From positions 15,550 to 79,549 of the forward strand of contig JBMORT010000002.1 in assembly GCA_049319825.1 (NCBI GenBank): 64,000 bases of DNA. The letters run 5' to 3'. A program made the translations under genes and the position numbers. Below the pieces are notes generated by a model, which worked only from the letters and a program-made list of their open reading frames with translations, did not search any database and had not been told where the DNA came from. Below are positions 45,957-50,345 of the stretch, in pieces. Position 1 is the first letter of the stretch, and the number at the start of each line of letters is the position of its first letter. This stretch comes from Patescibacteria group bacterium. Its GTDB lineage: Bacteria > Patescibacteriota > Patescibacteriia > UBA11705 > DATKZF01.

Positions 45957-46110
45957 ATTGAGTCATGGATCATGGAGCATAGAACACGTAGCACATAGCA
46001 TGGAGCACATAGCAGAGATACGAGACACGAAATACGAATTCGTTTCTCGTTTTTCGTTTATCGTCTTTCGTTTTTCGCTTCTCGCCTCTCGCTTTTCTCC
46101 TCTCAACAAA
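45957..46110. repeat. heptamer-repeat hairpin element, copy A: (GAGAYAC)n arm then (TTTTTCG)n arm
   Basis: catggatcatggagcatagaacacgtagcacatagcatggagca, then gagatacgagacacgaaatacgaa, then ttcgtttctcgtttttcgtttatcgtctttcgtttttcgcttctcgcctctcg. Related copies lie at 49700..49800 and 50110..50345. Confidence 0.75.
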
Positions 46111-46126
46111 TTTTAAACATAAAAAC

Positions 46127-46165
46127 GCGCCTCGGTTTTTTACCTTGGCGCGGTTATTTTTTTAC
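46127..46165 (+). terminator. rho-independent terminator downstream of dnaN
   Basis: aaaaaCGCGCCtcggttttttaccttGGCGCGgttattttttt. Confidence 0.55.
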
Positions 46166-46174
46166 TGGCGTAGG

Positions 46175-47500
46175 CTATGCAGCCTTGGCCAGCTTCTTCT
46201 CCTCGGCCGTCAGAGCGTCGAAGAGGTATTCGGCGAATTTGGTCGCCGTCCGCCACAGAGCCATCTTGTGGATATGGCCGTCTCCGTAGCGCTGCTTGCC
46301 GTTAACCTTGATCGGCTCCGGATGGGCGGCCCGGAGCTTCACCTTGTACTCGCGGAGCTTTTGGCCCCAGACCGAGTCGGGCCGCTTGACGCACTGATCC
46401 ATGAACAGGTACAGCGCCTGTCGGCCGTCCGGATGCCAGTTGGCCACGAGGCCGCCACGACGCCGCGGGAACTGCTTTTCCGGCGGCACGTCAGTGAATT
46501 TTCCTCCAGCCAAGACATGCACCCCAAGGAACGCCTTCAGTTTTGCCTCGCTGGCAAATCTCCGAATGTCCTTGATGGCCACGATCAGCCGGGCGGCGAT
46601 CAGCGGCCCCATGCCTTCGACCGGCTCAAAGACGCGCTGGAAGATGTCGAGCGACTCGACCAGCCTCTTGAGCTCGGATTCTCTGGCCGATTCTTCTTTC
46701 GTGAGGGCCAGATAGACCGCGTCGTTGGCCTTCTCCTGATCGTAGAGGAGCTCGATCTCCCCTTCCGGGTACTTGCCATCGATGCTGCAAAAGATCCGGC
46801 CGATGAACAGCTGCCTGAGTCGCTGCTCGCACCCGATACGCGCCTTCATGGCGTCGATTCGGGCGCGGTAGGCCTCGACCAGCTCGATCAGCCGGCGGTC
46901 GCGCGGCGTCACTTCATAGAAGTCGGACGTATCCTCCCTGGTCAGCTCGGCCAAAGAGAGATCATCATCGTCCTTTCCGCGCTTGAAGTAATCCTCGCGC
47001 CAGCCCTTGAACTTGGCGGCGGGAATTCTCATCACGCGGCCGCCGATCTCGTCGGCGCGGCGGGACAGGGCGTACGCCAGCCGATCGCCGGATCCGCCGA
47101 GGATCATGGCGACCGTGTCGCCTTCGCGAAGGCCGTCGTAGTCGGTGGGGACCTCGAGGACGAACACGCCCTGCTTGGTCTCCTTGACCTGATGGTTTTC
47201 GGAAAGCGACGCGAGATCCGTGCCCTTTCGAACCTTTTTCCAGACCTTATGCCGGCTCATGAAGCCGGACAAATTCTCATCCTTTCCGGCCAGCCGCCAG
47301 CTGGTCGGGAATTTGCCCAGCACCCAGTCGAGCTCGGCCGTGTCGTCCGGCAGCTCGTAGCGAACGGGCTTTTTTCCGTCGAGGACGCAGACCTGAGTGG
47401 GTCTGGCCTCATCATCAGCTGTCCTTTTGACGCGATGACGAATACCGATGAATCTTTCCCGGCTGATTCTCATCATCCCCCTCCTCGTCCTTTCGGACAT
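46175..47500 (-). CDS. IS110-family-like recombinase/transposase (Transposase_20-like C-terminal domain)
   Basis: 441-aa ORF with balanced composition. C-terminal VEGMGPLIAARLIVAIKDIRRFASEAKLKAFLGV...RRRGG matches the IS110 Transposase_20 motif (iPGiGpitAa.llaeigd..rF.s...laay.Gl.P). KRGKDDDDLSLAEL resembles the KTDxxDA block. The N-terminal catalytic residues could not be assigned confidently. The overlapping plus-strand ORF 46145..47512 is an antisense artefact of high GC. Confidence 0.6.
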   Translation of the reverse strand: MSERTRRGMMRISRERFIGIRHRVKRTADDEARPTQVCVLDGKKPVRYELPDDTAELDWVLGKFPTSWRLAGKDENLSGFMSRHKVWKKVRKGTDLASLSENHQVKETKQGVFVLEVPTDYDGLREGDTVAMILGGSGDRLAYALSRRADEIGGRVMRIPAAKFKGWREDYFKRGKDDDDLSLAELTREDTSDFYEVTPRDRRLIELVEAYRARIDAMKARIGCEQRLRQLFIGRIFCSIDGKYPEGEIELLYDQEKANDAVYLALTKEESARESELKRLVESLDIFQRVFEPVEGMGPLIAARLIVAIKDIRRFASEAKLKAFLGVHVLAGGKFTDVPPEKQFPRRRGGLVANWHPDGRQALYLFMDQCVKRPDSVWGQKLREYKVKLRAAHPEPIKVNGKQRYGDGHIHKMALWRTATKFAEYLFDALTAEEKKLAKAA

Positions 47501-47544
47501 TTTTTGGGATAGAAGGAATTTCCTTCCCTTTAATGCTCAAATTA

Positions 47545-48140
47545 TTGAACGCTAAAGGGAAGGCGGCAGGGGGGACACTACTTGATTCGTTTTGAACAAT
47601 TGATTCGTCGTTCCCCTGCCGCGTGAGGGCGCAAAGAAAAAATCGTCTATTTAAGACAGCCAAGGCTTCGCGCCCTCGCCCCAAATGTTTTGAAGAACAG
47701 CTCGGGCGATGGCGTGAAATTCGTTGTGTCGAAATTCGAAATTAGTTTGGAAACTCGTAAAATCGATATTCGTTTTGTCGAAATTCGATATTGGAAACTC
47801 GTTTAAAGCGAATTTCGATTTTCCAATTTCGATTACGAATATCGAATATCGACAACACGATTTTCGAATGGAATGAAAGAGTCCGGGCAGAACGCTTGCT
47901 CTGGTGAGCGGCGCGTTCTGCCCGGGATCAGGGGACAGACTCACACTCGTCATGTGAACACGGCGAGACTCGTCCTCTCCCGCAACCCTCTATTGCTAGA
48001 AAACTGCGGGAGAGGCGGCAGGGGAACATGATCTCGATCATTTTAAACACTACGTTTATCGTTCCCCTGCCGCCGTGTTGGGAGACACGCCTCGTGACGC
48101 CATTAACATCCCAAACCACGTCTCCCAAATCGCATTTTTA
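47545..48140 (-). ncRNA. candidate structured non-coding leader RNA (bridge/seek-RNA-like) upstream of the IS110-like recombinase
   Basis: No credible ORF. Two paralogous stem-loops, GGCGGCAGGGG(G)A-(about 35 nt)-TCGTTCCCCTGCCGC, at 47557..47625 and 47993..48075. Further perfect hairpins GAGGGCGC(38 nt)GCGCCCTC at 47625 and CCGGGCAGAACGC(17 nt)GCGTTCTGCCCGG at 47882. Heptamer tandem repeats at 47730..47880. A sigma70-like promoter lies upstream on the same strand. Confidence 0.3.
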
Positions 48141-48151
48141 CGCGACATTAG

Positions 48152-48180
48152 ACAATATCATTATTTTATAACCTTGTCAA
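48152..48180 (-). promoter_or_regulatory. sigma70-like promoter candidate driving the leader RNA/recombinase transcript
   Basis: Minus strand reads TTGACA (complement of 48175..48180), then a 17-nt spacer, then TATTGT (48152..48157). Confidence 0.35.
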
Positions 48181-48269
48181 GAGAAATGGCTGTAAAATGA
48201 GTGTTTTCTGGGTTTTCGCGGTGGTTTTCGTTTAAAACAAAAAACACTTTTGCAAACAAAGTGTTTTAA

Positions 48270-48312
48270 AAAGAAAAGCCGCCCGGGGTCAGAGGATTCT
48301 CTGGGGCGGCTA
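48270..48312 (-). terminator. rho-independent terminator after the 193-aa accessory ORF
   Basis: Minus strand reads GCCGCCCCAGAGaatcCTCTGaCCCCGGGCGGC followed by TTTTCTTTTT. Confidence 0.55.
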
Positions 48313-49092: not shown

Positions 49093-49125
49093 TTTTCACC
49101 AGCCGCAGGGAACAAAAATTTTGTA

Positions 49126-49380
49126 TTATTTTTTTAACAAGCGTTTTCTCATGAAAGCTATGCCAGAGGCCGTTTTTAGATAGTTTTCAAATTGAAGTGC
49201 GGTTTTCTTATCTTCGAATGCGCAATAGCAGACTAATTGCCACGGTTTGTATTTTGATGTATGCGCAGATTGACCGGAATTATGTCGTGTTAATATGGTT
49301 TCAATATTAGAAGTATAGCCTTTGTAATAGCGATTAGGATATTTTATGCTTCTTAAAATATAAGAAAAATAATTGAGCAT
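49126..49380 (-). CDS. GIY-YIG nuclease family protein (small YhbQ/UPF0213-like)
   Basis: YYKGYTSNIETILTRHNSG...KYKPWQLVCYCAFEDKKTALQFENYLKTASG matches the GIY-YIG small endonuclease pattern. Confidence 0.7.
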   Translation of the reverse strand: MLNYFSYILRSIKYPNRYYKGYTSNIETILTRHNSGQSAHTSKYKPWQLVCYCAFEDKKTALQFENYLKTASGIAFMRKRLLKK

Positions 49381-49570
49381 AAAGTTTTATGGCTGTGCCA
49401 TTCGAAGCTCGCGCCAAGAAAAGTAGTACGAACTTGTTTTACTGGTCCTTCTTCGTTCTGGCAAAATGGCCGTGCCAGCCGAAGCGCCAGCCAATTATTA
49501 CGTTTACTGCTGATCAAGATGTCGTCCTTCGCGTAAAGCTTCGGACGACAGCCTTCGCTGGCGCGAAGGC

Positions 49571-49657
49571 TGGTGCCGGCGGACGGACTCGAACCGTCAC
49601 GGATTTGCATCCACAGGATTTTAAGTCCTGCGTGTCTACCAGTTTCACCACGCCGGC
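49571..49657 (-). tRNA. tRNA-Leu (anticodon TAA), CCA encoded
   Basis: Reverse complement GCCGGCGTGGTGAAACTGGTAGACACGCAGGACTTAAAATCCTGTGGATGCAAATCCGTGACGGTTCGAGTCCGTCCGCCGGCACCA. Anticodon loop CTTAAAA, long variable arm. Confidence 0.85.
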
Positions 49658-49699
49658 CTACGCTTTTGCTTCGCTCAAGCTTCGGCCGGCAAGCCGGCC

Positions 49700-49800
49700 G
49701 AATTTTCATGGATCATGGAGCACATGACACATAACAGAAATACGAGACACGAGATGCGAAATGCGAATCGCTTATCGCCTATCACTTCTCGCCCGCCTGC
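49700..49800. repeat. heptamer-repeat hairpin element, copy B (shorter and diverged)
   Basis: catggatcatggagcacatgacacataacagaaatacgagacacgagatgcgaaatgcgaatcgcttatcgcctatcacttctcgcc. Lies immediately 5' (minus strand) of tRNA-Leu. Confidence 0.65.
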
Positions 49801-49977
49801 CAAGCCTGACGGGCAGGCTTCTCTCGTTAAACAATCAGCAATCAACAATTATCAATCAGCATTCTTTCTTCTCTATTCTTTCGCTTCTCGTATATTTAAA
49901 ACTCCAGCCTCCGACCTCAATTCTAGCTGGCCTGCCAGCCGAAGCTCGAGATGAGCTTCGCGAGTCGAGAGCGAAGG

Positions 49978-50053
49978 CTGGAGCGGGTAACGGGAATCGA
50001 ACCCGTATCTCTGCCTTGGCAAGGCAATATAATAACCATTATACGATACCCGC
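49978..50053 (-). tRNA. tRNA-Gly (anticodon GCC), CCA encoded
   Basis: Reverse complement GCGGGTATCGTATAATGGTTATTATATTGCCTTGCCAAGGCAGAGATACGGGTTCGATTCCCGTTACCCGCTCCA. Anticodon loop TTGCCAA. Confidence 0.8.
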
Positions 50054-50109
50054 TTGGATAATGAAACATGGATCACATAAATAATAACACAAATATTATA
50101 GCAAATCCG

Positions 50110-50345
50110 AAGAGAATGTCAATTGATGTCATGGAGCACGTAGCACATAGCATGGAGCATGGAACAGAGATACAAGACACGAGATACGAGACTCGAGACA
50201 CGAAATACGAATTCGTTTCTCGTTTTTCGTATCTCGTTTATCGTTTATCGTTTTTCGTCTTTCTTATTTCGTTTTTCGTGTTTCGCCTTTCGTCTTTCGT
50301 GTTTCGTCTTCCTACACTCGCCCCCCATCACATCTTCCTTTTTTT
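50110..50345. repeat. heptamer-repeat hairpin element, copy C (longest: about 6 GAGAYAC units, about 14 YYTTTCG units)
   Basis: atggagcacgtagcacatagcatggagcatggaacagagatacaagacacgagatacgagactcgagacacgaaatacgaa, then ttcgtttctcgtttttcgtatctcgtttatcgtttatcgtttttcg...gtgtttcgtcttcc. The plus-strand ORFs over it are heptad-periodic artefacts. Confidence 0.75.

Follow-up and report, generated by a model that had tools for sequence, protein, structure and literature searches.

The stretch analysed in this work, referred to below as the window, comprises 64,000 nucleotides of the forward strand of contig JBMORT010000002.1 (positions 15,550 to 79,549; assembly GCA_049319825.1) of a Patescibacteria group bacterium that stands close to Candidatus Falkowbacteria. 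Three non-coding elements built from 7-nt units, labelled A, B and C, are spread over 4.4 kb of it, and the question raised by the locus is what these elements are and how they came to stand beside dnaN and a group of tRNA genes. An earlier note, made from the sequence letters alone, had described them as long imperfect palindromes and had offered them either as the insertion target of an adjacent IS110-like recombinase, a gene identified below as tasR of a TIGR (tandem interspaced guide RNA)-Tas locus, or as elements associated with tRNA promoters. The reading that we hold to have a somewhat better than even chance is that A-C are composite heptanucleotide arrays, which arose by slippage of units together with fold-back or template-switch copying and were copied from the site of A into two nearby spacers. 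The genome was covered over about 71 kb, i.e., the window and 6.9 kb added from a Logan contig, and no further element copies were present in this extension.

Anatomy of the Heptamer Elements

Each of the three copies (90-200 nt) consists of a single unbroken 7-nt register throughout. The order of the units is the same in all of them: a head (CAYNNAG)n, one CAGARAT unit, a purine arm (ACGARAY)n, the centre GAATTC, and a pyrimidine arm (CGYTTNT)n. The head is composed of CATGGAG, CACATAG and CACGTAG, the purine arm of ACGAGAC, ACGAGAT and ACGAAAT, with the centre written as ACGAATT followed by CGT, and the pyrimidine arm, which is C-rich at its distal end, of CGTTTCT, CGTTTTT, CGTTTAT and other units. 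The numbers of head, purine and pyrimidine units vary around this constant order (7/3/10 in A, 4/4/4 in B, 5/6/16 in C), and in both A and C the length of the pyrimidine arm is over twice that of the purine arm. Since the head is made of heptamers in the register of the arms, it belongs to the array and does not form a motif of its own. Exact blocks of 22 nt and 37 nt are common to A and C, and B has the first 16 nt of A's head in common with A.

The earlier note was right in placing three related copies beside dnaN and the tRNA genes, and their extents were refined to those given in Table 1. A related head was confirmed in all copies, but the consensus that had been quoted for it is exact in none, as A has one extra unit, C is without CATGGAT and B agrees over those first 16 nt only. 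Heptamer arms are present as well, although the pyrimidine unit is CGYTTNT and not (TTTTTCG)n as it had been named.

Tandem Repeats Finder reported arrays of period 7, 14 and 21 over each copy, with unit matches of 70-86%, and in a sliding autocorrelation of the 64 kb only lags 7 and 14, among lags 4-15, yielded regions. A 30-nt head pattern gave two matches and the pattern CATGGAGCA five, all of them inside A-C, versus 0.00 and 0.41, respectively, expected from shuffles. The pyrimidine-arm pattern was found 16 times versus 0.48 expected, every match being in A or C. An Rfam search of positions 45500-51000 (E <= 1) returned three tRNAs plus chance matches to microRNA-precursor hairpins only.

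Independent Logan contigs of SRR32167788 are 100% identical to the window over 34824-46050, 46028-49497 and 50201-56552, which confirms the sequences; their only breaks fall in the 37-nt core common to A and C, which accounts for them. This core exceeds a typical k-mer, and the break of short-read contigs exactly there is what could be cited for the suspicion, raised in the earlier note, that the assembly produced the repeats or their arrangement artificially. In the same contigs, however, A is joined to dnaN by its unique head and to the cassette by its unique right arm; owing to the imperfect units no array is ambiguous at k = 31; and the order dnaN, tRNA-Leu, tRNA-Gly, tRNA-Leu is ancestral in relatives, in support of the assembled path. 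The chance of an artefact is regarded as negligible.

Two open reading frames (ORFs), 50068..50352 and 50159..50488, exist in the region of C and are not genuine, as had been foreseen; one of the two shares bases with tRNA-Leu, which is encoded on the opposite strand. Of the translations, that of the 94-aa ORF alone was searched, and it gave a single marginal match (E = 0.098) among 5.8 billion proteins. Coiled-coil or membrane peptides encoded by the heptad ORFs were rejected, as the searched ORF is without homologues and one ORF overlaps a tRNA gene. Logan contig L002, which covers C from 50201 onwards, carries no gene call there.

Table 1. Coordinates of the heptamer elements, their parts and neighbouring features in the window.
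Feature	Position	Strand	Description
Heptamer array AGAAATT, GGAAATA	3858-3955	+	Spans stop codon of gene 2138-3895 and 5′ leader of next gene
Heptamer array CTGCCTG, TAGCTTG, CTACTGC	35370-35520	-	Inside Wzy_C-like gene 35178-36716
dnaA	43148-44545		Upstream of A
dnaN	44824-45954		Directly precedes A
Copy A	45964-46110	+	Between dnaN stop codon (45954) and bidirectional terminator
Copy A, head	45964-46012	+	7 units CAYNNAG
Copy A, CAGAGAT	46013-46019	+	
Copy A, purine arm	46020-46040	+	
Copy A, 37-nt core	46020-46056	+	cgagacacgaaatacgaattcgtttctcgtttttcgt, identical in A and C; short-read contigs break here
Copy A, centre	46036-46041	+	GAATTC
Copy A, pyrimidine arm	46041-46110	+	10 units, C-rich distally
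Bidirectional terminator-like hairpin	46126-46163		cgcgcc...ggcgcg, T runs on both sides; between A and tasR stop; read from sequence
tasR	46175-47476	-	TIGR-associated RuvC-Nop protein, 433 aa; stop codon 46175-46177
Stem-loop TIGR array and promoter	47477-48180	-	Promoter TTGACA-17-TATTGT, 48180->48152
Element D	47716-47868		AT-rich palindrome, 33% GC; 7- and 22-nt periods (TCGAAAT, CGATATT)
Copy B	49707-49797	+	In 321-nt spacer between minus-strand tRNA-Gly and tRNA-Leu
Copy B, head	49707-49734	+	4 units
Copy B, CAGAAAT	49735-49741	+	
Copy B, purine arm	49742-49769	+	
Copy B, centre	49767 (central base)	+	GCGAATCGC
Copy B, pyrimidine arm	49770-49797	+	
Further heptamer arrays	49824-49890	+	(CAATCAG)n then (TTCTTTC)n; same tRNA spacer, adjoining B
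tRNA-Gly promoter	50095-50122	-	TTGACA-16-TATAAT; 12/12 consensus matches, extended -10 TG
Copy C	50130-50325	+	Starts 7 nt from -35 box of tRNA-Gly promoter
Copy C, head	50130-50164	+	5 units
Copy C, CAGAGAT	50165-50171	+	
Copy C, purine arm	50172-50213	+	6 units
Copy C, 37-nt core	50193-50229	+	As in A
Copy C, centre	50209-50214	+	GAATTC
Copy C, pyrimidine arm	50214-50325	+	16 units

Origin and Pairing of the Elements

The closest relative, designated L004 (79% identity in DnaA, 84% in DnaN and 72% at the nucleotide level across dnaA-dnaN), has the same gene order of dnaN, tRNA-Leu, tRNA-Gly and tRNA-Leu. After its dnaN stands a mini element of only 75 nt, which consists of ATGGAGTACATATCATGGATCA and then (NAATTAC)4. 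A nucleotide alignment of the two genomes reaches over the first 25 nt of A, and the beginning of its head is orthologous to L004 12790-12813, so that the site of A is ancestral. At the site of B, L004 carries three tandem 48-nt repeats (13556-13680), each with a GC-rich hairpin GGCCGACAGGCCGGCC, and no B; at the site of C it carries unrelated AT-rich DNA and no C. The tRNA-Gly promoter is 89% identical in both genomes, and the identity ends at the -35 box, where C begins. In other relatives dnaN leads straight to a plain terminator, and the tRNA-Gly/tRNA-Leu spacer that holds B in the window measures 26-217 nt. Since L004 has a miniature A and neither B nor C despite conserved tRNAs and promoter, the elements appear to be young and dispensable, and not needed for tRNA expression.

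Heptamer arrays are not limited to A-C. The window holds seven arrays, and 21 lag-7 arrays were found in 1.44 Mb of related Patescibacteria loci, versus 3-6 each for lags 6 and 8-11. From one genome to another the unit sequences show no relationship. An inverted-repeat score of at least 12 was reached by 43% of the array windows versus 7.6% of 565 intergenic controls (Mann-Whitney p = 5e-4); the palindromic layout is a property of heptamer arrays as a class. No single functional context is common to them: one array of the window spans a stop codon and a 5′ leader, with further arrays in 5′ untranslated regions (UTRs), such as those just upstream of start codons in L059 and L053; another encodes a hydrophilic loop of the Wzy_C-like protein, a 34-codon insertion relative to the L004 orthologue; and a third, element D, lies inside the TIGR array. 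The Wzy_C-like membrane protein as a whole (35178-36716, minus strand) is 69% identical to its L004 orthologue and has three lineage-specific insertions, at residues 75-99, at residues 233-245, and the 34-codon loop encoded by array 35370-35520.

These data bear on the proposal that the elements serve tRNA promoters, whether as protein-binding or as DNA-shape elements (an upstream activating array or curved DNA). The positions are suggestive at first, as C abuts the -35 box of a promoter of perfect consensus and a tRNA gene is found within 300 nt of 6/21 arrays versus a background of 8.7%, but three of the six are copies from the window. With these set aside, 3/15 remain in relatives, which is not significant, and an association with tRNA genes was rejected. 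A has no promoter in its vicinity, the stretch from B to its downstream tRNA-Leu yielded no recognisable sigma-70-like promoter, and L004 keeps the tRNA-Gly promoter, conserved up to the -35 box only, with unrelated DNA and no element upstream. As a matter of DNA geometry, the bends of A-tracts placed 7 bp apart cancel over 21 bp rather than sum, so that no planar bend would result. The link to tRNA promoters is positional only, and a promoter role is considered highly improbable.

The other structural claim of the earlier note, that the copies can form long imperfect hairpins, was borne out. In a fixed palindromic register the arms are 55-71% complementary, with Watson-Crick pairs at 30/42 positions in C, 23/42 in A (plus five G-T) and 20/33 in B, and an inverted-repeat search gave a complementarity of 73-79% over 28-49 nt. 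In each arm heptamer five positions pair and the same two mismatch. B has G-C at two equivalent arm positions where A and C have A-T, and these double changes would fit either arms that template each other or pairing that is selected. DNA folds of the elements gave z = -2.3 to -4.3 versus dinucleotide shuffles, and RNA folds a modest z = -1.6 to -3.5.

An alternative would have the elements maintained as functional RNA hairpins (an RNase III-type processing site, a 3′-exonuclease barrier, a terminator or an insulator) that separate the units of polycistronic transcripts, namely dnaN from downstream DNA, tRNA-Gly from tRNA-Leu, and the guide-RNA units of the TIGR array. Inverted partners are strongly enriched at heptamer arrays, the A-T to G-C changes in B are compensatory, and A, B and D lie in probably transcribed stretches. 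In the genome L010 an unrelated heptamer palindrome (AATTCTA / TAGAATT) occupies the same tRNA spacer as B, and in L085, a TIGR locus described in the next section, all linkers that separate guide units downstream of tasR, as well as the one upstream, are heptamer-periodic and, where inspected in detail, palindromic. The surplus pyrimidine arm of A and C supplies a U-rich tail on the plus strand, as in an intrinsic terminator; the short G+C-rich stem followed by a T run that defines such a terminator is nevertheless lacking in A-C, none of which was called by a terminator scan, and canonical hairpins follow at 46126-46163 and 50350-50385. C, moreover, is located between the terminator of the second tRNA-Leu and the tRNA-Gly promoter, where transcription is not required, and its mismatches (G-U versus A-C) are without strand bias. 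The absence of the elements from the orthologous sites of L004 despite conserved tRNAs and promoter, the modest z values of the RNA folds, the five other TIGR loci without such linkers, and the occurrence of arrays in a coding loop and in 5′UTRs also count against this function, which we regard as rather unlikely.

The origin that we favour, by slippage, fold-back copying and local duplication, would run as follows. The ancestral copy would have stood after dnaN, at the position of A. Arrays would grow, shrink and drift through slipped-strand mispairing of whole 7-nt units, the register being kept, and the inverted pyrimidine arm would result from fold-back or template-switch copying of the purine arm, the same copying holding the arms partly in step. 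Ectopic copying within this lineage would have placed B and C in two free spacers close by, with unit numbers altered later. Transcribed elements would put long bulged hairpins into the dnaN 3′UTR, the tRNA-Gly/tRNA-Leu spacer and a linker of the TIGR array; we consider their effect on the transcripts to be neutral or mildly useful, and modest at most. The elements themselves would be neither genes nor a transposon target.

Several points weigh against this account. Slippage alone explains neither the preference for 7 nt nor the frequent palindromy, and throughout the arms the two mismatches of a heptamer keep to fixed positions. Selection on an imperfect hairpin could account for the compensatory changes in B, and the palindrome of L010 in the spacer of B hints at a positional need or a hotspot. 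A dispersed, genome-wide family is possible beyond the approximately 71 kb covered. A wider interpretation, which we judge distinctly improbable, would make the heptamer palindromes an undescribed class of self-templating hairpin repeats of Patescibacteria, used as RNA-processing or insulating modules between small-RNA units (the tRNAs of operons and the guide RNAs of stem-loop TIGR arrays) and seeding protein loops.

The TIGR-Tas Locus Beside Copy A

The gene next to A, which had been taken for an IS110-like recombinase, passes the model of a TIGR-Tas RNA-guided endonuclease (NCBIfam NF052498) with 126.3 bits (cutoff 100) over residues 202-419, whereas two IS110 models gave 35 and 20 bits, with cutoffs of 140 and 180, respectively. 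Only weak IS110-type matches were obtained in Pfam, and the only PDB match was 9MTY, TaTasR (E = 1.8e-7). About 790 homologues of the protein were found, and all of those with source names are from Patescibacteria. At the N-terminus, GIR replaces GID at the first RuvC catalytic position, in agreement with the dead nucleases of this clade; the protein probably lacks the first catalytic Asp and is nuclease dead. Catalytically dead TasR proteins of these bacteria act as RNA-guided repressors (10.64898/2026.09.09.750476).

Upstream of tasR the array has at least three guide units, which start at 48133, 48074 and 47623 and are the only matches of the unit pattern; this pattern consists of a stem, RRRC-G, a 10-nt spacer A, the 11-nt loop TGTTNANNNNG, a 10-nt spacer B, TGTYYC and a stem. 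The 650-nt tasR leader folds with z = -12.3, contains CUU after the third guide unit and also holds accessory hairpins; no Rfam family matched the array or the leader. Judged from the NF052498 score, the 9MTY relative and the upstream guide array, this is a TIGR-Tas locus with a stem-loop array of the type reported in PMC12045711 and 10.64898/2026.09.09.750476. With the neighbour being a TIGR-Tas gene, the argument from the insertion of IS110 elements into REP-like repeats has no basis here.

A mobile origin, with the elements themselves of the MITE (miniature inverted-repeat transposable element) or REP (repetitive extragenic palindromic) kind, or their use as a preferred insertion site of an IS110-type element, is barely credible. 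The three related copies with exact shared blocks, and the distant relationship of the neighbouring gene to IS110, are consistent with it. REP sequences and BIMEs (bacterial interspersed mosaic elements), like MITEs, are also intergenic imperfect palindromes that can form hairpins in transcripts and break short-read assemblies. REPs, however, are 20-40 nt long and not 7-nt periodic, number in the hundreds and go together with RAYT transposases, and MITEs have terminal repeats and target-site duplications. A-C measure 90-200 nt and number three in the 71 kb covered, all within 4.4 kb. Their flanks (GAGT/TTTT, TTTT/TGCC and ATGT/ATCA) show neither target-site duplications nor terminal inverted repeats, the inverted arms being internal. 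The head/arm junction pattern CAGARATACRAGACACGARAT was matched neither in 185,579 species genomes nor in viral contigs, and JGI metagenomes gave a single partial match to it; the head pattern, for which viral contigs alone were scanned, had no match there. Nor is A split by the cassette, a possibility that had been raised: it is intact, with the complete layout of head, arm, centre and arm as in C, beside a gene that fails the IS110 models and probably lacks the first catalytic Asp.

The locus of the closest TasR homologue (59% identity), L085 (Logan SRR22387830 contig, 1-3200), contains seven guide units of the same architecture, GGGCGAGTGRAAC-G, 10 nt, TGTGCNATTGCACG, 10 nt, TGTTTCACTCGCC, and a conserved hairpin (GGGCGCG..CTGTCTGAAAAGACG..) precedes each unit downstream of tasR and the one upstream. 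Its linkers are AT-rich and heptamer-periodic, and palindromic where they were inspected in detail. Heptamer palindromes stand on both flanks of this locus, and L085 also has arrays in non-TIGR spacers. Element D of the window, with 35-nt arms that are 83% complementary, lies between two guide-RNA hairpin groups inside the GC-rich TIGR array and corresponds in kind to the linkers of L085. The idea that heptamer linkers are general in this TasR clade was rejected, as the loci L086, L092, L094, L095 and L096 are without them.

Whether A-C are parts or targets of the TIGR-Tas system, as linkers, as boundary elements or as sites of the TasR-guide RNA complex (for instance, repressing the tRNA-Gly promoter), was considered in this context, and we find it very unlikely. 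A ends 65 nt from the tasR stop codon, D is inside the array, and in L085 heptamer palindromes flank the locus and separate all units; in linker 6 of L085 the unit types follow one another much as they do from head to purine arm in C. The second guide unit has AACGATAAACG in common with the arms of A and C, and the dead TasR proteins of these bacteria are the RNA-guided repressors mentioned above. On the other hand, a dual-spacer target search over the 71 kb gave 31 hits with <=2 mismatches versus 8-34 for shuffled guides, i.e., no natural target beyond the shuffled controls, and no hit in A-C. The arms of A-C meet at GAATTC, leaving no loop able to hold two spacers as a guide unit does. The head of A is orthologous in L004, where no tasR is present in the 21 kb fetched around dnaA, a region that covers the dnaN-tRNA stretch. 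The five TIGR loci without heptamer linkers and the arrays of L085 in non-TIGR spacers point in the same direction. We treat the link of the TIGR locus to A-C as incidental, with lineages filling unconstrained spacers with heptamer arrays.

A bridge-RNA-style matching of hairpin loops to the cassette flanks had yielded matches of 10 nt and 11 nt, which were rejected once the guide-unit architecture was known, since the former is the conserved loop motif and the latter consists of 4 nt of the stem-closing AACG (box) plus 7 nt of spacer A.

In the four loci compared (the window, L085, L086 and L092), the GC content of tasR exceeds that of neighbour genes by about 13 to more than 20 points, with 61% versus 38% in the window. 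An ORF of 193 aa (48333-48914, minus strand, 53% GC) separates the TIGR array from a GIY-YIG gene; it has its own promoter and two terminators, and no match to it was found in Pfam, NCBIfam or PADLOC.

Relation to Known Repeats and Other Features of the Region

Heptanucleotide simple sequence repeats (SSRs) are over-represented in bacteria, and polymerase slippage has been proposed as their source (Mrazek 2007, as summarised in PMC4679880; PMC4692102). Like the long SSRs of that work and the cyanobacterial STRR heptamers, the elements of the window are tandem 7-nt repeats that are mostly intergenic, sporadic and variable between close relatives. Their units stand head-to-tail beyond chance, and A, B, C, D and the array at 49824-49890 are all non-coding. 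In place of a single near-perfect unit, however, A-C are imperfect mosaics of several unit types in one register, the arrays usually have an inverted arm, and the three copies share one layout.

The GGGAATC and GGGGAYT arrays of Xanthomonas and Nostoc (Rehm et al. 2015, PMC4692102) are likewise intergenic heptamers that vary in length and sequence between close species, and some form inverted pairs with potential stem-loops or cruciforms. They differ in being G-rich, quadruplex-capable, of one unit type and genome-wide, whereas A-C are not G-rich and their arms form contiguous palindromes. The TAACTGA repeats of Beggiatoaceae, Cyanobacteria and Bacteroidetes (MacGregor 2015, PMC4679880) are often placed just upstream of start codons, a likeness that holds for the array at 3858-3955 and those of L059 and L053, but that family has one fixed, non-palindromic unit at hundreds of sites. 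The tandem repeats of Borgs (PMC9879509) arise rapidly in intergenic and coding DNA and create new hydrophilic or disordered segments, to which the loop insertion of the Wzy_C-like protein may be compared; they are perfect direct repeats of varied unit lengths (multiples of three in genes) on archaeal extrachromosomal elements.

The linkers of stem-loop TIGR arrays (Faure 2025, PMC12045711; Xu 2026, 10.64898/2026.09.09.750476), whose length varies by clade, resemble D and the L085 linkers in standing between guide units, whereas A-C are outside the array and five other loci have no heptamer linkers. Neither PMC12045711 nor 10.64898/2026.09.09.750476 mentions AT-rich, heptamer-periodic or palindromic linkers. 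No literature report of heptamer repeats of this kind was found for Patescibacteria. The over-representation of heptamer SSRs, their explanation by slippage and occasional inverted pairs are thus already known from other bacteria; what is new here are mosaic, palindromic, locally copied heptamer elements in Patescibacteria.

The partial JGI match, L003 (contig Ga0209417_1000475, 2440-2940), is a heptamer mosaic of about 300 nt, repeated twice, in another organism and at a locus without tasR. One stretch of it is 96% identical over 27 nt to the head/purine-arm junction of A, a likeness that could be due to convergence or to shared origin.

For annotation, the arrays matter in that they create false ORFs, break short-read assemblies and adjoin a gene that may readily be mistaken for an IS110 transposase. 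Small Patescibacteria genomes still generate lineage-specific 7-nt arrays quickly, in UTRs, tRNA spacers, guide-RNA arrays and coding loops, and their strong tendency towards palindromes is not covered by the usual slippage account. If selected, the palindromy would point to a simple and evolvable RNA-processing signal; if it stems from the mechanism, the arrays would clearly exemplify fold-back repeat expansion in nature. With the gene reassigned to TIGR-Tas, a further chromosomal locus is available together with its neighbouring context, which is scarce for these systems. This reidentification and the unexplained 7-nt/palindrome rule are the points worth keeping, the elements themselves being of modest interest.

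The likely oriC region (42735-43142) lies upstream of dnaA, with the cumulative GC-skew minimum near 43-44 kb, a DnaA box TTATCCACA at 43034-43042, CATCTGTA-like repeats at 42888-42930 and the heptamer-like GTAAAGC ATGAAGC ATGGAAA at 42735-42760. A role of A-C in the replication origin was rejected, given that the DnaA box and repeats are upstream of dnaA, 3-7 kb from the elements, and that relatives are without the elements.

A second repeat family, unrelated to the heptamer elements, is represented by the GC-rich REP-like motif (GGCC)TGCCAGCCGAAGC near the tRNA genes, at 49396-49411, 49473-49490 and 49933-49950, and is also present in L004, L011 and L045. Finally, a long hairpin on the minus strand (49902-49983) is formed by the 3′ end of tRNA-Gly, CTCCAGCC..., which pairs with the downstream GGCTGGAG and is followed by TTTT. 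It is kept in L004 (13680-13790) and may be a terminator or a processing structure that includes the CCA end.

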